Made by a program: the position numbers and the translations under genes. Source: an uncultured SAR86 cluster bacterium (GTDB lineage Bacteria > Pseudomonadota > Gammaproteobacteria > Magnimaribacterales > D2472). From it: a DNA stretch of 64,000 bases. The notes under the pieces are model-generated. The model was not told where the DNA came from. It saw only the letters and a list, made by a program, of their open reading frames with translations, and made no database searches. How positions within the stretch are numbered: position 1 is the stretch's first letter; each line of letters starts with the position of its first letter. The stretch covers positions 17,431-81,430 of the forward strand of contig CACCOR010000005.1 in the NCBI GenBank assembly GCA_902547695.1, read 5' to 3'. Of the stretch, positions 17,676 to 26,511 are shown piece after piece.

Positions 17676-18899
17676 CTAAGAATTGCCAGATGGTATGTCT
17701 TTAAACGCAACACCTTTATCAGCCCGTGGATCTTGAGGAAGTCCAAGCACTCTTTCAGCAATGATGTTTCTTAGGATTTCATCTGTTCCACCAGCTATTC
17801 TCATTCCAGGTGCCCCCAACCAGGCATTTTGAAAACCTTTTACATCATTATTATCTGTTCTTAGCATGCCAGCCATGTCTAGTGAATCTATCCCAAAATT
17901 ACCAATATTTTGAAGTTTTCCAGCGCTGACAATCTTAGTTATTGATGCCTCAGGTCCAGGAGTATCTCCTCTAGAAAGTGCAGACATTGTTCTTAGCTTT
18001 GTATTTTTAAGGCCACTTTTTTCACAATACCAATCAGCAATAGATTCTCTTGCTGCTTTATTATTTAAAAGGGGCTCTCCTAGATTATCTTGAGTTTTTG
18101 CCCATCTAAAGGCATCCTCAACATCCGCTCCACCTGCATCACCAACGGCAAGTCTTTCATTCATTAATGTTGTTATAGCAACCTTCCAGCCATCACCAAT
18201 TTCTCCAAGTCTTTGAGAATCAGGAATTTCTACATCAGTGAAATAAACCTCATTGAAACTTGAACCACCAGTAATTTGCTTAATTGGCTTTACCTCAATG
18301 CCTGGTGATTTCATATCAACAAAGAAGAACGTCATACCCTTATGTTTTTCTAAGTCTGGATCATGTCTTACCACTAAAATTCCATAATCTGAAAAATGAG
18401 CACCAGATGTCCAGACTTTCTGACCATTAATAATCCACTTATCACCTTTTTGAACTGCTTTACTTCTAAGACCAGCCACATCTGAACCTGCTGAAGGCTC
18501 AGAAAACAATTGACACCATATTTCTTTACCTTCTGCCATTGGTGGTAAATATCTTTCTTTTTGTTCCTCTGAAGCATACTCCATCATCACTGGACCACAC
18601 ATACCTAAACCAATTTCAAAAATTCCCTTTGGTACATCAAACTTAGCTTCTTCGTTAGCCCATATAATTCTTTCCATTGAACTCGCACCAATTCCACCAT
18701 ATTCTTTTGGCCAATGAAGCATTGCCCATCCAGCATCATATTTCTTTTTTTGCCATGCTTTAGCTGCTTTCATTTTGTCTTTATTTGCAAAGTCATCATT
18801 TTGAGGTGTTGAATCCTCTTTATAGGTGGCATTTTTTTCAAGCCAATCTCTACATTTTTTTCTAAATTTTGCTTCTTCTTTTGTGTCGTTAAAATCCAT
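17676..18899 (-). CDS. Acyl-CoA dehydrogenase
   Basis: WCQLFSEPSAGSD, NGQKVWTS, LMNERL, IAGGTDEI. Confidence 0.93.
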   Translation of the reverse strand: MDFNDTKEEAKFRKKCRDWLEKNATYKEDSTPQNDDFANKDKMKAAKAWQKKKYDAGWAMLHWPKEYGGIGASSMERIIWANEEAKFDVPKGIFEIGLGMCGPVMMEYASEEQKERYLPPMAEGKEIWCQLFSEPSAGSDVAGLRSKAVQKGDKWIINGQKVWTSGAHFSDYGILVVRHDPDLEKHKGMTFFFVDMKSPGIEVKPIKQITGGSSFNEVYFTDVEIPDSQRLGEIGDGWKVAITTLMNERLAVGDAGGADVEDAFRWAKTQDNLGEPLLNNKAARESIADWYCEKSGLKNTKLRTMSALSRGDTPGPEASITKIVSAGKLQNIGNFGIDSLDMAGMLRTDNNDVKGFQNAWLGAPGMRIAGGTDEILRNIIAERVLGLPQDPRADKGVAFKDIPSGNS

Positions 18900-18909
18900 A
18901 TTTATTTTC

Positions 18910-20022
18910 CTAATTAATATTTGATTGTTCTAAACTAGTAACTAATTTTTCTCTCCAATTACTTAGAGACCCAAGATTTAATGATAAAAGCTTAGATCGT
19001 CTATAAAACATATGGCAATCATATTCCCATGTAAATCCATTTCCACCATGAGTTTGAATATTTTCTTGAGAACATAACTGATAAGCTTTGATTGCACTAA
19101 CACGAGCTGTTGCTGATGCTGATGGGAGATCAGCTGAATCAGTTGATAATGCCCAAGCTGCATAGTAACAATTTGATTTTGCAAGAGTAAGAGCAATGTA
19201 CATATCAGCAAGCTTATGTTTAATTGCTTGATAAGAGCCTATCGGTCGTCCAAAAGCATATCTCTCTTTTGCATAATTAACGGCCATATCTAGTGATGCT
19301 TGAGAACCTCCAATTTGCTCATAAGCAAAAAGAACTGCTGCTTGATTAATAATAGATTCATAAATATCCCATCCAGAAATATCATCACCAATAGCTTGAG
19401 TGTCAACACCGTCGAATGTTATTGAGAAATGGCCTCTGCTTTCATCAATATTCTCTTGGTGTTCAATTGAAACACCTTCATGAGATAAATCAGCAACTTG
19501 AAGGCAAATACCTTTTTCTGATTTAGCAACAACTAATGCATGAGTTGCAATGCTCGCATCAGGTACAGCAATTTTCTTGCCATTTATTTTTCCTGATTTG
19601 CAAGATAATTTAATATTATCTTTTGAAGGTGCAAAGAGATCTTCTGTTACTGCCAAGGTTCCAATGACATCACCAGATACTAATTTTGGAAGAAGATCTT
19701 TTTTCATTTCCTCGCTTCCATACTTAATTATTGCTTCTGTGAATAAATATACAGAAGATGAGAAAGGAACTGGGGCTAAAAATCTTCCAAGCTCTTCAGC
19801 AATAACACATAGCTCCAAATGTCCTAAACCAAGACCATCAAATTCTTCAGGAATTCTAATACCAGTCCACCCAAGCTCAACAATTTTTGACCATAGCTCT
19901 TGATCAAAATGTGACTGATTTTCTAAAACTGTTCTATTTCGCAATAGGGCATTTTCTTTTTCTAAGAATTTTCTTGCTTCTTCTTGAAGAAACTTTTGAT
20001 CGTCTGAAAAATCTAAATTCAT
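18910..20022 (-). CDS. Acyl-CoA dehydrogenase, short partner subunit
   Basis: RYAFGRPIGSYQAIKH and QTHGGNGFTWE; the N-terminal FAD motif is degenerate (LAVTED). Confidence 0.88.
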   Translation of the reverse strand: MNLDFSDDQKFLQEEARKFLEKENALLRNRTVLENQSHFDQELWSKIVELGWTGIRIPEEFDGLGLGHLELCVIAEELGRFLAPVPFSSSVYLFTEAIIKYGSEEMKKDLLPKLVSGDVIGTLAVTEDLFAPSKDNIKLSCKSGKINGKKIAVPDASIATHALVVAKSEKGICLQVADLSHEGVSIEHQENIDESRGHFSITFDGVDTQAIGDDISGWDIYESIINQAAVLFAYEQIGGSQASLDMAVNYAKERYAFGRPIGSYQAIKHKLADMYIALTLAKSNCYYAAWALSTDSADLPSASATARVSAIKAYQLCSQENIQTHGGNGFTWEYDCHMFYRRSKLLSLNLGSLSNWREKLVTSLEQSNIN

Positions 20023-20766: not shown

Positions 20767-20979
20767 GTGAATAGGTTTGTTTTACAGGTTTTTTTGTTCC
20801 TTGCATTTATTCCTTTAGCTATTTTAGTTGGTTATGGAATTCTTGTGATTGCGCCAATTTTTTGCTGTTTTCTTGCAATTAATTCCTATAAATTTAACAA
20901 TTATAAAGAAATGTACATATGGATGGCATTTGGAGGTCTTTCTTTCATGCTTGCTTTGTATATGTTGGGAGTTTTATGA
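20767..20979 (+). CDS. Small hydrophobic membrane protein
   Basis: 70 aa, GTG start, almost entirely hydrophobic; ATGA overlap with the next gene. Confidence 0.6.
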   Translation: MNRFVLQVFLFLAFIPLAILVGYGILVIAPIFCCFLAINSYKFNNYKEMYIWMAFGGLSFMLALYMLGVL

Positions 20980-21374
20980 GCGTTATAATTAAAGGATATT
21001 TACTTATAATTGGTGTTACTTCAATAGTAATGGGTTTATGGGCAATGTTTGGGCCAGAATTTGTGTCTTGGTATCCTGCCTTTGATGGTGTAGAAAGATA
21101 TACTCCTTTGGCAAATTTTATCAGAACAATGTCTGGAGTTTTTGTTGCATCTGGCTATATTCTTGTCCGGTTTATTTTTTCCTCATCAAAAGTTCAACTT
21201 GGCACAGTTTTAATATACATGTGTGCATTCATGCTTCTAGGTAAAGCTTGTGGATTATATTACGAGGGATATCATTTTCATGATGTCATTGCATCAATTT
21301 TAGGTGTACTTACTCTTATCGGTCTGACAATAGTTCACAGACAAAGAAAAAATTTACTTAATTACGATCTTTAA
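20976..21374 (+). CDS. Four-TM membrane protein, DUF4345-like
   Basis: Start moved to MSVIIKG (ATGA coupling). IRTMSG and LGK...EG patterns. Confidence 0.55.
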   Translation: MSVIIKGYLLIIGVTSIVMGLWAMFGPEFVSWYPAFDGVERYTPLANFIRTMSGVFVASGYILVRFIFSSSKVQLGTVLIYMCAFMLLGKACGLYYEGYHFHDVIASILGVLTLIGLTIVHRQRKNLLNYDL

Positions 21375-21419
21375 AAATTTTCCACTTAGACAATATAACT
21401 ATATATAATGCATATGCCT

Positions 21420-21504
21420 GGGGATGTGGTGGAACTGGTAGACACGCTTGGCTTAGAACCAAGTGCCGCAAGGCGTGGGGGTTCGACTCCCTCCATCCCT
21501 ACCA
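21420..21504 (+). tRNA. tRNA-Leu(TAG)
   Basis: Acceptor GGGGATG/CATCCCT, anticodon arm CTTGG-CTTAGAA-CCAAG, long variable arm, GTTCGA, encoded CCA. Confidence 0.96.
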
Positions 21505-21580
21505 ATTTTATATAAAAAATAGATACTTTTTTTATTAAAATACTAGTTAAATTGTTTTTTACATATATACTCGAAAGAGC

Positions 21581-21673
21581 ATGTTAAATGTTAACTTACA
21601 TAAAAGTCGGGGAGTATCAGCATAGCTGGGACCGCTTTTATTATTTAACCCAGCTATTGCTGGGTTTTTTTTT
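21581..21673 (+). promoter_or_regulatory. Candidate transcription attenuator with a 14-aa leader ORF (21581-21625)
   Basis: Leader MLNVNLHKSRGVSA*; hairpin 21601-21640; alternative 13-bp pairing of 21618-21630 with 21649-21662; downstream intrinsic terminator. Confidence 0.65.
21647..21673 (+). terminator. Intrinsic terminator just upstream of the TonB receptor start codon
   Basis: AACCCAGC-TATT-GCTGGGTT continuing into a T9 run (21665-21673). Confidence 0.85.
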
Positions 21674-21688
21674 GAGAGGATATGAATT

Positions 21689-24052
21689 ATGAAAAACTTT
21701 AAAACAATTTTGTGCACACTAGTTTTGGCACCATTTATTTTGATTTCACAAGAAGTTGAAGAAGTCATAGTAACAGCCAACAAAAAGGCTGAGACTGTGC
21801 AAGAAATACCTATGAATATATCTGTAATAACAGAATTAGCAATCGAGGAACGAGGTATAACTAACCCTGAAGACTACTTGAGATCTATTGCTGGTGTCTC
21901 AACACCTGGTGGCTCAAATTATTATACTTTCAGGGGTTTAAATACATCTACCTCTCAAAGATCTTCAGGAACGTCGTCTACATATATCGATGAAATTAAT
22001 GGATCTTTAATGGGCTTATTTGATGTTGAGAGAATAGAGGTTCTTAGAGGACCTCAAGGAACGCTTTATGGATCAAATGCAATCGGGGGAACAATAAGAT
22101 ATATAACTAATAAACCTGATTCAAGCTCAGCCTATGGAAAGATTAGAGTAGGTTATGGTGATAAAGTAAAAGCAGGAGATCCTGAAACAAGTATTGAAAT
22201 GATGTACAACATGCCTTTAAGTGAAAGTCTTGCTGTAAGAGCAGTATATTCTCAACTTGTATCACCTGGTATCTATAAAAATATACAAACTGGTAAAACA
22301 GTTGGTGAAGAAGATGATTCACAATTAATGATCACGCTTGGCTTCAATAATGGAGGCAAACTTACAGGAAGTTTGAGGTATATTAATTTCAACAACAAAG
22401 CATTTGGTATTTTAGAACCTGGTCAAAGTAAGCCTGGAAGTGCTGATGTTTATGTTGAGGGATGCCCTAAGGCAACTAGCTGGTTTTATAATTTTGATGG
22501 TGATCCAACATGCTCGCGTTTAGATGCAATATCTTCGTTTGCAGCCTCTGAGGGGGTAAGTGGAGTTCTCTCAAATTATGATCCTAAGTTTTCTCATGCC
22601 CTAGCTGCAGATGAATCTGAAGATATAACTAGAGAAACTTTAGTTGCGAACATTAAATATGATTTTGGCCTCTTTGATGCGAACTTAATCATTTCTGACA
22701 GAACGGTAACTGATGATTCAGTTACAGACTGGGCTAGAATTGATATGGATGATTATGTGCCAGCACCATTAATTGTTGATGGTGATGAGTATTATGAGGA
22801 GACAACAGAACTTAGATTAATTTCAAAGCCAGGAAAATTTGAATGGACTATTGGTTATTATAATTACAAGTTTAATGAGGAGCCTAATTCTATATCTCAA
22901 ACACAATACGCAATGGATCAGGATTGGTTAGAATATGTAATGCTTTATGCAGCTGGTTTGGGTCCTGATGACTATGATGCAACTGCTTATTGTCCTCCTT
23001 TTTGTGAAGGGCATCTTGGTTATCCATATTTCTACTATGGATCCTATACTGAATATAATGAACAAGAAGAGACATCAATGTATGGTCAATTCGATTACAA
23101 CGTTAACGATAAACTGACTTTAACGTTAGGAATTAGAGATTATGAAATTGAAGATGCTTCTAAGTCTTACCAGTATGGAATATTTTTTATGGGTAGTACT
23201 GGGTGCGATGGTAACGATCCATCAGGTACTGATTGTTCGGAATTATCAGGCTCGGAGTCTGATACTAGGATGAAATATGCAGCAAGCTATAGGGTCAATG
23301 AAGATCTAACATTGTATGCAACACAAGCAGCTGGTTACAGACCTGGTGGAAATCAGGCACCACTTCCTCCTTTCTGTAGCAGTGATGAAGCAGCTCAAGC
23401 AAACTTTTCAAGAAGATTTAATTCTGATGAAGCTGAAACTACAGAATTTGGTGTGAAAGCTAGAGGAGATAATTATACTGCTAATGTGACATATTTCGAT
23501 GTTGACTGGGATGGAATTATTATCCAAGTTACTCCTGGTTGTGGCTGGAGATATAATTTTAATGGCGGTAAAGCTGAAACTTCTGGTTGGGAATTTGACT
23601 TTACATATGCGGTTAATGATTCTGTTTCACTAGATTTTGCTGGAAGCACAATGACTGCAGAGACATCAATTGATATTGCCTCACTCGGAGCATCAGCAGG
23701 TGACAGACTTCCAAATACAGTTGAAAAACAATGGAATCTTGGATTGGTGTATGACACTTCAATAATGTCATATCCTACTTATGCAAGACTTGATGTAAAT
23801 TATTATGGAGATAGTTTTAATACTTTTGCTGAGAATCCAAATTCGAGCTCTCCAGATTATACAAAGTTAAACTTTAATCTTGGATTAGATTTGAATGAAA
23901 ATTCTAAATTACAACTATCTGTAGATAATCTTACAGACGAAAGAACTGAAGCATATGTTTATGCAGTTAATGACACATCTTGGAGACCAAGAAACTGGAT
24001 GCAGTGGATACCTCCAAGAACTGTTAGCCTAAAATATTCTTTTAGTTTCTAA
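21689..24052 (+). CDS. TonB-dependent receptor
   Basis: Signal peptide, TonB box EEVIVTA, plug motif RIEVLRGPQGTLYG, C-terminal PRT...YSFSF. Confidence 0.95.
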   Translation: MKNFKTILCTLVLAPFILISQEVEEVIVTANKKAETVQEIPMNISVITELAIEERGITNPEDYLRSIAGVSTPGGSNYYTFRGLNTSTSQRSSGTSSTYIDEINGSLMGLFDVERIEVLRGPQGTLYGSNAIGGTIRYITNKPDSSSAYGKIRVGYGDKVKAGDPETSIEMMYNMPLSESLAVRAVYSQLVSPGIYKNIQTGKTVGEEDDSQLMITLGFNNGGKLTGSLRYINFNNKAFGILEPGQSKPGSADVYVEGCPKATSWFYNFDGDPTCSRLDAISSFAASEGVSGVLSNYDPKFSHALAADESEDITRETLVANIKYDFGLFDANLIISDRTVTDDSVTDWARIDMDDYVPAPLIVDGDEYYEETTELRLISKPGKFEWTIGYYNYKFNEEPNSISQTQYAMDQDWLEYVMLYAAGLGPDDYDATAYCPPFCEGHLGYPYFYYGSYTEYNEQEETSMYGQFDYNVNDKLTLTLGIRDYEIEDASKSYQYGIFFMGSTGCDGNDPSGTDCSELSGSESDTRMKYAASYRVNEDLTLYATQAAGYRPGGNQAPLPPFCSSDEAAQANFSRRFNSDEAETTEFGVKARGDNYTANVTYFDVDWDGIIIQVTPGCGWRYNFNGGKAETSGWEFDFTYAVNDSVSLDFAGSTMTAETSIDIASLGASAGDRLPNTVEKQWNLGLVYDTSIMSYPTYARLDVNYYGDSFNTFAENPNSSSPDYTKLNFNLGLDLNENSKLQLSVDNLTDERTEAYVYAVNDTSWRPRNWMQWIPPRTVSLKYSFSF

Positions 24053-24148: not shown

Positions 24149-25129
24149 ATGAGAATTATTTTTATATATTTTCTTACACTTTCCATCATTGTTTGTTCTG
24201 ATAATGAAGATATTGTCGAAACAAATATAGTTAATCTAAAAGAGTACTCTGTCGACAAAAGCTCATATTGCAAAGATAGAGCTGAACCAAAAAATTTAAT
24301 ATGGTCCCAGAATTTTGATGAAAATTATCTATCTCCAAATGTTTGGAATTATTCAACATCAAATGGTTTTTACGATGGAAAAGAATTTATTAGTGGTTGG
24401 GGCAATGGAGAACTTCAGTATTATACAAAGCCAAGAAATTCAGAAGGTAATACCAATACGTCTAAAAATCTTTTTATTGAAAATGGGTATTTAAAAATAC
24501 AACCTATATATAGAAAAGATAAATCAAGAATTAGCAGCGGTGAAGCTGCATATAACTTTACCTCAGCAAGAATTAATACCAAAAATCTTAAATCTTTTTC
24601 CTATCCATCAAAAATTTCAATATGCTTCAAGGTTCCAAAAGGAATTGGATTTTGGCCTGCATTTTGGTTGATGCCAAGTGAAGATATTAGATGGCCAGTT
24701 GGAGGAGAAATTGATATTTTAGAAAATAGAGGCAGAATATCTAATATTTCAAGCTCTGCTCTTCATTTTGGCAAACAATGGAACAAAAAATCTACACTTG
24801 TGGGTGAAGCTTTAATTCCAAGGCAGGTTCGCTTCCAGGACAAATTTCATTCTATATCTTTGGTATGGAAGGAAAATTACATTGCTTTTTATCTTGATAA
24901 TTCTCCAGATCCATATTTCACTATAAATTCTGATCATCCAGAATTTCAAAAATATAAGTACCCATTCAATAGAGATTACTACATGATTTTAAATGTAGCG
25001 GTTGGAGGTAAATATGATGATTATTGGGTTGATTTTGATGCATTTTGCAGTGATCGAGCCTGCTCAAATAAAGAAAATCCTGATAGTCATAGATTTATAA
25101 TTGATTGGATTGAATATGAGAGACTTTAA
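24149..25129 (+). CDS. Glycoside hydrolase family 16, laminarinase-like beta-1,3-glucanase
   Basis: GWGNGELQYY, WPAFW, catalytic GEIDILE, LNVAVGG. Confidence 0.9.
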   Translation: MRIIFIYFLTLSIIVCSDNEDIVETNIVNLKEYSVDKSSYCKDRAEPKNLIWSQNFDENYLSPNVWNYSTSNGFYDGKEFISGWGNGELQYYTKPRNSEGNTNTSKNLFIENGYLKIQPIYRKDKSRISSGEAAYNFTSARINTKNLKSFSYPSKISICFKVPKGIGFWPAFWLMPSEDIRWPVGGEIDILENRGRISNISSSALHFGKQWNKKSTLVGEALIPRQVRFQDKFHSISLVWKENYIAFYLDNSPDPYFTINSDHPEFQKYKYPFNRDYYMILNVAVGGKYDDYWVDFDAFCSDRACSNKENPDSHRFIIDWIEYERL

Positions 25130-25152: not shown

Positions 25153-26511
25153 ATGTCTAGGGGATTTATATTATCAGATGAAATTATTGATCATGAGATC
25201 AATTCTCCTGCTTTTGAAGAAAAGCATAACTTTGATGCATCAGGTAAATTAAATGATTTAGAACTCTTCACTAAAGGGCAACCCTTCAGTCTTTATAAAG
25301 AGCTTAGAGAAAATGCACCAATATATTTTCATGATCCTATGCCTATGGATCCTGAGCCGGGTTATTGGGTATTAACTAAATATGAAGATATAAAGTACGT
25401 ATCAATGAATCCAAAAATTTTTTCGTCGCAATATGCTACTGGCAATATGCTAACACTAGGATCAGAAGAAAATAGACATCCTAAATTATTTAAATCAACT
25501 ATAGACCATATGTTAAATTTAGATGGAGAGATGCATCTTAATCTCAGAAAAGAACATATGCCATTTTTTAAACCTGGGTACGTAGATGAATTAAAACAAA
25601 AAGTTTCTTTGAAAGTTACTGAGTTATTGGATCAAATTGCTCCAATGGGTGAGTGCAATCTTGTTAAAGAAGTATCTCAACAATTACCTATTTATACTCT
25701 CTCAGAAATACTTGGAATTCCGGATGAAGACAGACAAAAATTAGTCTCTTGGATGGAATTTCTTGAATTAGCCCAATACTTTACTTATGAAATGATAAAA
25801 GAGCAAAATGAGGGCAAGACAGATTCAACCCCAGATCCAGCGATGATAGATATGTTTAATGCAATGGTTGATGAAATGTTTGATTACGGAAGGTTCATTC
25901 TTAAAAACAAAAGAAAGAATCCCTCAAATGATCTTTTGAGTGCTATTGCTAACGCAAAAATAGAAGGTGAAGAGCTTTCTGATGAATTTCTAGATGGATC
26001 TTGGCTGTTAATAATTTTTGCAGGTAACGACACTACAAGAAATACAATGAGCGGCGGCATTAAACTTCTTCATGAGAATCAGCATCAAAAAGAGTTATTA
26101 ATTAATAATTATGACTTACTTTCAGGTTTTATAAATGAGACTGTAAGATGTGTTTCACCAGTAATTCATATGAGAAGAACATCTCTTATTGAAACAGAAA
26201 TAGGTGGTCAAAAGATTGGTCCTCATGAAAAGATAGCATTATGGTATGGAGCCGCAAATAGAGATCCAGAAATTTTTGATAAACCAGATGAATTTAATAT
26301 TCAAAGAGAAAATGCAGAAAAACATCTTGCTTTTGGTATAGGCAGGCATACATGCCTTGGTAAACCAATTGCTTTGATGCAATTGAATGAATTTTATTCA
26401 CAATTTCTTAAGAGATTTCCAGATTTTGAAATGAATGGTGAATGGAAGGTGGCTCCAAATAATTTTGTTCACGCTATCCAAGAAATGCCAATTAAATTCA
26501 CCAAAGAATGA
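25153..26511 (+). CDS. Cytochrome P450
   Basis: I-helix AGNDTTRN, ETVR (ExxR), heme ligand FGIGRHTCLG. Confidence 0.95.
   Translation: MSRGFILSDEIIDHEINSPAFEEKHNFDASGKLNDLELFTKGQPFSLYKELRENAPIYFHDPMPMDPEPGYWVLTKYEDIKYVSMNPKIFSSQYATGNMLTLGSEENRHPKLFKSTIDHMLNLDGEMHLNLRKEHMPFFKPGYVDELKQKVSLKVTELLDQIAPMGECNLVKEVSQQLPIYTLSEILGIPDEDRQKLVSWMEFLELAQYFTYEMIKEQNEGKTDSTPDPAMIDMFNAMVDEMFDYGRFILKNKRKNPSNDLLSAIANAKIEGEELSDEFLDGSWLLIIFAGNDTTRNTMSGGIKLLHENQHQKELLINNYDLLSGFINETVRCVSPVIHMRRTSLIETEIGGQKIGPHEKIALWYGAANRDPEIFDKPDEFNIQRENAEKHLAFGIGRHTCLGKPIALMQLNEFYSQFLKRFPDFEMNGEWKVAPNNFVHAIQEMPIKFTKE

Follow-up and report, generated by a model that had tools for sequence, protein, structure and literature searches.

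What does the structured leader between a tRNA-Leu gene and the gene of a TonB-dependent receptor sense, and how did it come to stand there? The question is raised by a stretch of 64,000 nucleotides (nt) from an uncultured SAR86 cluster bacterium (GenBank assembly GCA_902547695.1, contig CACCOR010000005.1, positions 17,431 to 81,430), which as a whole is called the window here. The leader spans positions 21544-21673 of the window and comprises a putative promoter, an open reading frame (ORF) of 14 codons, a hairpin, an antiterminator strand and a terminator. The original prediction, made from the letters of the window, had described it as a ribosome-mediated attenuator or a terminator riboswitch. 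Copies of the same element were found in other genomes of the family, either before the receptor gene in the window's genus (receptor-linked copies) or before argF', a gene of arginine biosynthesis (argF'-linked copies). With a probability of about 0.7, the element is a transcription attenuator of the trp/his type, mediated by the ribosome through a leader peptide, with arginine as the amino acid of its control codon, and it now lies before a receptor operon in a genus without the arg operon. The first half of the original description is therefore supported, while the second is not: no Rfam family matches the leader, and its conserved letters are explained by codons and pairing. The anatomy of the leader, its conservation, the behaviour of its frame, its pairing potential, its homology and its synteny were all observed directly. 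The parts of the leader are located as follows.

21544-21549, plus strand: -35-like hexamer TAGTTA, aligned with TTTACA of the argF'-linked copies, with a 16-nt spacer
21566-21571, plus strand: putative -10 hexamer TATACT, recognised by its conservation
21581-21625, plus strand: leader ORF of 14 codons and UAG, MLNVNLHKSRGVSA, with ATG at 21581 and UAG at 21623-21625
21600-21641, plus strand: hairpin P1/P2 (segments 1:2), AUAAAAG-U-CGG / CCG-CUUUUAU with the apical UCAGC-AUA-GCUGG
21608-21610, plus strand: candidate control codon CGG (Arg), codon 10 of the leader ORF
21622-21630, plus strand: antiterminator strand AUAGCUGGG (segment 2), which contains the leader stop UAG
21647-21666, plus strand: stem of the intrinsic terminator (segments 3:4), AACCCAGC-UAUU-GCUGGGUU, extending to 21673 with its U-run
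21674-21680, plus strand: ribosome-binding site of the receptor gene, GAGAGGA, as read from the sequence
21689-21691, plus strand: start codon ATG of the receptor gene

The minimum-energy fold of 21505-21700 (196 nt) contained both the hairpin and the terminator (z-score -4.76; none of 200 shuffles was as good), and a terminator scan over 1.5 kb returned a single terminator, the one of the leader. Its run of nine U occupies 21665-21673 and is opened by the last two U of GCUGGGUU. The strand AUAGCUGGG is a copy of the terminator's 3' arm and can pair with the terminator's 5' arm. This antiterminator pairing joins 21618-21630 with 21649-21662 through 13 base pairs and one bulged U, and its energy in the window is -11.7 kcal/mol; that of the terminator is -13.8 kcal/mol. 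The hairpin with its CAGC-AUA-GCUG apex, the 13-bp pairing, the terminator that runs into nine U just before the receptor's Shine-Dalgarno sequence, and the 14-codon ORF whose stop lies within the antiterminator strand had all been described in the original prediction, and all were present. A transcription start of the receptor downstream of the terminator had been considered there as an objection; between the terminator and the receptor ATG there is no room for a promoter (about 15 nt in the window, and within about 40 nt in 27 genomes).

Copies of the leader were collected from 139 genomes of the same family, by a DNA search first, then by alignment and then with a covariance model (R1). A pattern search for the element caught 68 loci; two more, L075 and L077, were added by hand, their -10 boxes being off-pattern, and L084, which contains an N, was left out of the counts. 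The hexamer TATACT is present in all 26 unique receptor-linked copies and in 22 of the 28 unique argF'-linked copies (48 of 54 in all), which marks it as the probable -10 box; TAGTTA is presumed to act as the -35 element. The leader ORF starts 9 nt past the -10 box in the window and 6-10 nt past it across the copies. Because the start codon is so close, a 5' untranslated region of only about 0-4 nt is predicted, and the ORF would be leaderless or nearly so. The Shine-Dalgarno-like GAAAGAG that had been noticed before the ORF does not fit this picture, since it is not conserved and the distance from the -10 box to the start codon leaves no room for it in the relatives.

The codon CGG starts 14 nt ahead of AUAGCUGGG, and UAG lies inside AUAGCUGGG. 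A ribosome covers about 12-13 nt beyond its A site. The geometry fits attenuation: a ribosome at CGG would leave segment 2 free, and a ribosome at the stop codon would mask it. It had been expected that CGG would be rare in this genome, and this was borne out: it is the rarest of all sense codons, with 49 occurrences in 467 long ORFs (0.23 per thousand). Genes for tRNA-Arg with the anticodons UCG, ACG, UCU and CCU were present in the assembly, which is 75% complete, and one with CCG was not found in it.

From this anatomy and from the logic of the trp and his leaders, the transcription start, the translation of the ORF, the stalling at CGG and the response to arginine can be predicted as follows. 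Transcription would begin a few bases past TATACT, which would place the 14-codon ORF at or within about 4 nt of the 5' end of the RNA. When charged tRNA-Arg is ample, the ribosome would reach UAG and cover AUAGCUGGG; the terminator at 21647-21673 would then form and end transcription 15 nt ahead of the receptor gene. Without any translation the P1/P2 hairpin would hold AUAGCUGGG, and the terminator would form too. When the ribosome stalls with CGG in its A site, it would cover the 5' half of the hairpin and leave AUAGCUGGG free; AUAGCUGGG would then pair with CCCAGCUAU in the 5' arm of the terminator, the terminator would not form, and transcription would read through into the receptor, GH16, P450 and MFS genes. 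In an arginine auxotroph the charging of tRNA-Arg would report external arginine, and the cluster would be induced by arginine hunger.

The behaviour of the leader frame was compared among the unique copies. An ORF of 13-16 codons starting from ATG or GTG was found in all 55 of them. Through the fifth codon past CGG the frame is open in 52 of 54, compared with 6 and 9 of 54 for the other two frames, and the two exceptions merely stop one codon early. Every one of the 48 unique copies with 14 codons has CGG as its tenth codon. Of the 28 unique argF'-linked leaders, 26 have two or more Arg codons, and neighbouring Arg codons are seen as AGA-CGG or CGA-AGA-CGG, or as CGG-AGA in genus g7; two argF'-linked leaders of g7 have a single CGG. 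In 43 of 54 copies AGCUGG lies 43 nt from the start codon; seven copies have a distance longer by 3 or 6 nt, owing to two independent insertions in the window's genus that keep the frame. Three copies are frame-shifted (L042, L066 and L028), and each of them has a substitute in-frame UGA or UAA within 4 nt. For L042, which lies before argF' in genome G132, a 1-nt deletion throws UAG out of frame and a change from GCUGGG, invariant elsewhere, to GCUGAG makes an in-frame UGA 4 nt further on; the two changes seem to compensate each other and so to preserve the position of the stop. Beyond the stop, all spacer lengths from 17 to 22 nt occur, and the U and A of UAG are invariant although their pairing partners vary.

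The pairings are conserved as well. When P1/P2 and the terminator were scored in the model-based alignment, 83% of the cells were paired, versus 34-52% in slid controls; 11 of 25 pairs had changed on both sides, and the covariation score was reached by none of 500 shuffles. In P1 alone, 8 of 9 modelled pairs had changed on both sides, so that the sequence differs between lineages and the pairing is kept. The 25 receptor-linked copies alone gave 77% of cells paired, versus 33-52% in slid controls. Terminator pairs are kept in 98.6% of cells, with one compensatory change from C-G to U-A (two copies) that the antiterminator tolerates as a G-U pair. The five-pair antiterminator core, GCUGG/CCAGC, was found in at least 52 of 54 copies. 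In the minimum-energy folds the antiterminator strand is sequestered in 48 of 54 copies; in folds that mimic a ribosome stalled at CGG, where the RNA 5' of the antiterminator strand is removed and the 3' arm of the terminator is not yet made, the antiterminator formed in 54 of 54. RNAalifold on a plain MAFFT alignment recovered the terminator only, with the 3' arm of P1 misaligned, and was superseded by the single-sequence folds and the covariance-model alignment. The single-sequence folds, which do not depend on the model alignment, agree with the hairpin pairing. Thus the ORF, its CGG, the stop inside the antiterminator strand and the 1:2/2:3/3:4 layout are conserved over 54 unique copies, and a lack of conservation of the antiterminator pairing or of the leader ORF in homologues, which had been raised as a way for the proposal to fail, was not seen.

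What is seen here, a conserved and compact hairpin that has an internal loop, adjoins the expression platform and shows invariant purine-rich letters in and around the loop, could also be expected of a ligand-binding riboswitch. P1/P2 with CGGG and AUAGCUGGG would then be an aptamer for arginine or a related metabolite and would control the terminator without translation; a link to arginine genes would suit such a metabolite sensor. However, a riboswitch has no use for a conserved start codon, an open frame (52 of 54 copies versus 6 and 9), frame-keeping insertions and deletions or replacement stops, and the invariant letters coincide exactly with the Arg codon, the stop codon and the copy of the terminator arm. 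When 20800-22200 was searched with cmscan against Rfam 15, with E values up to 10, only the tRNA was above threshold; no riboswitch family and no Rfam leader family matched the element, and the faint likeness to yybP-ykoY that had been noted before did not reappear even at this permissive limit. In genus g5, as detailed below, the whole structure is swapped for an ORF that ends in a run of Arg codons, which points to codons as the sensor. A riboswitch is therefore highly improbable, and an arginine-codon attenuator is preferred because of the Arg codons, the open frame, the frame-keeping indels and the near-invariant CGG and UAG.

The distribution of the element connects it with arginine. R1 gave one full-length match (54.6-102.8 bits) in each of 66 of the 139 family genomes; the next-best matches, at 42.9 bits or less, were short and partial, and two that were inspected were bare terminators. 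No match was obtained in 110 sampled genomes from three sister families of the order. The element is thus single-copy and specific to the family, whose members are proteorhodopsin-bearing marine Gammaproteobacteria with small genomes (about 0.7-1.5 Mb, with 32% G+C in the window's genome). In the window's genus (g1) it lies at most about 40 nt upstream of the receptor gene in all 27 genomes with a receptor ortholog, and the identity between these receptors ranges from 62 to 100% over the first 500 residues. Receptor orthologs outside the genus had no element upstream at 11 loci from four other genera (g3, g6, g7, g9 and g10 were sampled). Outside the receptor setting, the element lies directly before argF' in 30 of 30 loci from g9, g4, g8, g2 and one g1 genome, and likewise in five of five g7 loci and two further g1 loci; all 37 non-receptor copies examined, from five other genera and three g1 genomes, adjoin argF'. 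The 332-aa protein encoded by argF' is an N-acetylornithine carbamoyltransferase (equivalog-level match to NF003384, 527 bits), and argF' is the first gene of argF'-argG-argB-argC-argH. By its homology the leader of the window can be taken to descend from the leader of this arginine-biosynthesis operon.

Several candidate copies were rejected. L034 and L036 proved to be bare terminators. Duplication of the leader was ruled out, as no genome has two full-length copies. A suspected second copy in the window's own genome, on contig C4, was ruled out as a two-way terminator after a proteorhodopsin-like gene: at about 1400-2240 of this contig (G000, locus L002) the gene, whose product ends in ...NKIAFGLAIYVAAVSDSE, runs up to that terminator. 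The stem of the C4 terminator is nearly the same as that of the attenuator's terminator, and the terminator sequence recurs in most genomes of the family. Genome G056 of genus g6 (59% complete, 2% contamination) was also set aside. Its contig with locus L099 has tRNA-Leu and a leader that, over the stretch compared, matches the copy of G125 (g9); in the place of argF' comes a truncated transporter-like frame, and the contig is possibly chimeric, foreign or a contaminant.

The arginine context also bears on a third explanation, in which the unit is the gene of an independent, iron-responsive small RNA (sRNA) similar to RyhB or PrrF, or an attenuator whose terminated 95-nt product acts in trans. 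The element resembles RyhB (RF00057) and PrrF (RF00444) in its size, in having a GC-rich terminator hairpin behind a U-rich stretch and in its place near a TonB-dependent receptor gene, and for 21535-21674 Rfam gave PrrF (34 bits, E 0.0013) and RyhB (27.8 bits, E 0.012) below threshold. The unit also has a promoter and a terminator of its own, and a terminated trp attenuator RNA is reported to act in trans in Sinorhizobium (bioRxiv 10.1101/606483). Both scores are far below the gathering scores, however (90 for PrrF and 55 for RyhB), and the aligned parts are mostly the terminator and U-rich stretches. Unlike these sRNAs, the element carries an ORF and an antiterminator, and in other genera its neighbours are arginine genes, with no tie to iron genes; no more than about 15-40 nt ever separate it from the start of the downstream gene, which has no promoter of its own. 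There is only the slightest chance that this explanation is right, and the attenuator remains the preferred one.

Several points weigh against an arginine attenuator in the window itself. The leader of the window has one Arg codon, as do 20 of the 26 unique receptor-linked copies, which is fewer than in the classical attenuators and in the argF'-linked form. CGGG is also part of helix P1b, so that CGG could owe some of its invariance to structure. In the window's genus the -35 box is weak (3 of 6 letters), and a simple promoter scan does not call the box. No Shine-Dalgarno sequence is conserved before the ORF and six unique copies start with GUG, while leaderless GUG is translated inefficiently in E. 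coli. Variation shows no excess at the third codon base (entropies of 1.21, 1.27 and 1.22 by codon position); because the three positions vary equally, the peptide itself is not under protein-like selection, which fits a leader peptide and is no independent proof of translation. The pair counts come from alignments that were fitted to the model and are biased towards it. An arginine signal also makes no obvious physiological sense for a cluster with GH16 and P450 genes. Finally, the receptor gene (21684-22500) was found in contigs of four marine metatranscriptome runs from four studies, with several pieces at 99% identity or more, so the organism and its receptor gene are represented in RNA libraries, although such contigs say nothing about expression level or transcript ends. 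Those contigs cover the receptor, the upstream gene and the tRNA; they leave 21587-21668 uncovered and do not bridge the junction of leader and receptor, in a region where the hairpin and the U-run assemble poorly and with contigs that carry no start or end information.

Some of these points would suit a relic, that is, a descendant of the arginine attenuator that no longer reports arginine and acts as a promoter with a leaky constitutive terminator, giving low expression of the receptor operon. Of the 26 unique receptor-linked copies, 20 no longer have the second Arg codon (AGA, codon 9), the -35 box has degenerated, and an evident link between arginine and GH16 or P450 is missing. The hairpin and the antiterminator are also weaker on average in receptor-linked copies (-13.2 and -11.4 kcal/mol) than in argF'-linked copies (-15.9 and -14.2 kcal/mol). 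In contrast, none of the 26 unique receptor-linked copies has lost CGG, UAG, the open frame, the P1 pairing (which shows compensatory changes) or the AGCUGG repeat, over a receptor divergence down to 62-69% identity. A plain leaky terminator needs neither an ORF nor an antiterminator, the two 3-nt insertions that arose independently in the window's genus keep the frame, and the two g7 leaders before argF' also work with a single CGG. A relic is therefore unlikely, though it deserves more weight than the riboswitch or the sRNA, and a working arginine attenuator is still the favoured explanation.

The genes around the leader were annotated by sequence, those for proteins by Pfam and NCBIfam matches.

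21420-21504, plus strand: tRNA-Leu(UAG), conserved left neighbour of the locus, outside the switch and given as context
21689-24052, plus strand: TonB-dependent receptor
24149-25129, plus strand: GH16-like gene
25153-26511, plus strand: cytochrome P450 gene
26508-27782, plus strand: ACS-type MFS transporter gene

The receptor, GH16, P450 and MFS genes follow one another on one strand, 97 and 24 nt apart and, at the last junction, overlapping by 4 nt, and they are presumably co-transcribed. Directly 3' of tRNA-Leu, at 21505-21541, there is a hairpin made of A and T only that is followed by a U-run. It is probably the terminator of tRNA-Leu itself and would separate the tRNA from the leader promoter. 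Further upstream, on the minus strand at 17676-20022, there are two neighbouring acyl-CoA dehydrogenase genes.

The gene tRNA-Leu lies upstream in receptor-linked and argF'-linked loci alike. The gene orders of the window and of three argF'-linked loci are given below, where trx167 is the thioredoxin-like 167-aa gene.

Window: up217-DUF4345-tRNA-Leu-leader-receptor-GH16-P450-MFS-trx167
G132 (L110): tRNA-Leu-GH16-leader-argF'GBCH-MFS-amn-trx167
G081 (L111; the window's genus, with arg genes): GH16-leader-argF'GBCH-MFS-trx167
G123 (L112): tRNA-Leu-receptor-leader-argF'GBCH-MFS-trx167

Because this gene order is shared, the receptor-linked and argF'-linked arrangements are one locus, and the window and G132 share 58% identity in their right-hand neighbour, trx167. 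Most simply, receptor, GH16 and P450 would have replaced argF'GBCH behind a leader that lay directly after tRNA-Leu, as it does in many g9 genomes. The slot between tRNA-Leu and trx167 is a hot spot of rearrangement: some genomes have a receptor or GH16 gene ahead of the leader, in the window's genus these genes come after it, and among L110, L111 and L112 only the first, in G132, has a gene for AMP nucleosidase. In both settings the row of genes behind the leader ends with the ACS-type MFS gene, which comes after argH in L110 (9137-10429), L111 and L112 and after P450 in the window, with 58-73% identity. It may belong to the arginine-controlled unit in both settings. Because it keeps this end position whether or not the arg genes are there, the substrate of the transporter may be related to arginine.

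The arg operon itself has largely gone from the window's genus. The gene argF' was found in 3 of 40 genomes of the genus, and a true argH (above the curated family cut-off) in two of those three; both genes are missing from g1 genomes that are 90-97% complete. They are common in g4, g5, g7, g8 and g9 and absent from g3 and g6. A published comparison of SAR86 genomes describes one lineage without arginine synthesis and another with it on contigs that are otherwise syntenic (PMC3358033), and the loss of the arg operon in the window's genus fits this account. Against this background it is conceivable that an arginine-auxotrophic lineage kept the starvation sensor of a biosynthetic operon and rewired it to uptake, and that the cluster is a system for scavenging arginine or nitrogen; we propose this only tentatively, with our own confidence clearly below even. 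In such a lineage uncharged tRNA-Arg, sensed at the one rare CGG of the nearly leaderless ORF, would switch on an operon with a TonB receptor in the outer membrane and an MFS transporter in the inner membrane.

Genus g5 has a different arrangement before argF'. Ten of its 13 argF' loci (among L068-L074 and L080-L083) have no 14-codon attenuator and no clear intrinsic terminator. Instead, there is an ORF with an Arg-rich tail (...NRRRRSI, ...KRRRRSI, ...KRRLRSI or ...QKLRSL) whose end lies 35-41 nt ahead of argF'; in L071, L072 and L082 an upstream panD-like gene provides the tail (...TQRIRSV or ...TQRLRSL) as its C-terminus. This may be a second and different control of argF' by arginine codons, perhaps a translational one, and the Arg-tailed ORFs lend independent support to arginine sensing through translation.

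Leader-peptide attenuation is textbook knowledge for the Trp, His, Leu, Thr, Phe and Ile/Val operons (trpL, hisL, leuL, thrL, pheL and ilvL), and arginine genes are usually regarded as being under the control of the ArgR repressor. The literature searched, which did not include subscription-only papers, yielded no attenuator of an arginine-biosynthesis operon. The element resembles the trpL/hisL type in having a short leader ORF with codons of the regulated amino acid (in the argF'-linked copies), three mutually exclusive pairings (1:2, 2:3 and 3:4), a stop codon at which the terminating ribosome would cover segment 2, and an intrinsic terminator just ahead of the first structural gene. It differs in that its amino acid is arginine, with one or two control codons instead of a run, and in that it is leaderless or nearly so, without a Shine-Dalgarno sequence; no sequence homology to those leaders was seen. 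In the window's genus, moreover, the genes controlled are an outer-membrane receptor cluster and not biosynthetic genes.

A closer parallel for the amino acid is orf34 upstream of speF in Salmonella, where ribosome pausing at two consecutive Arg codons at low arginine is reported to alter the folding of the downstream mRNA (Ben-Zvi et al. 2019, PMC6386406). In both cases a short upstream ORF carries Arg codons, and in the element it would likewise sense arginine. By the same account (PMC6386406), orf34-speF works through Rho-dependent termination, access to the ribosome-binding site and sensitivity to RNase G, controls polyamine synthesis and has an ORF of 34 codons, whereas the element uses an intrinsic terminator and an antiterminator; there is no homology between the two.

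As an attenuator, the element is unusually minimal: its ORF has 14 codons, one or two of them control codons (the rarest codon of the genome among these), and lacks a Shine-Dalgarno sequence. The window's genus, which is without the arg operon, keeps the switch under selection before a nutrient-uptake cluster. If the switch no longer senses arginine, it would be a dated example of a regulatory relic. If it still senses arginine, a biosynthetic regulator would have been captured for scavenging in an auxotroph. This would show how streamlined ocean bacteria retain amino-acid sensing after the loss of a pathway, and it would provide a handle on what an abundant and mostly uncultured group takes up when it is starved.

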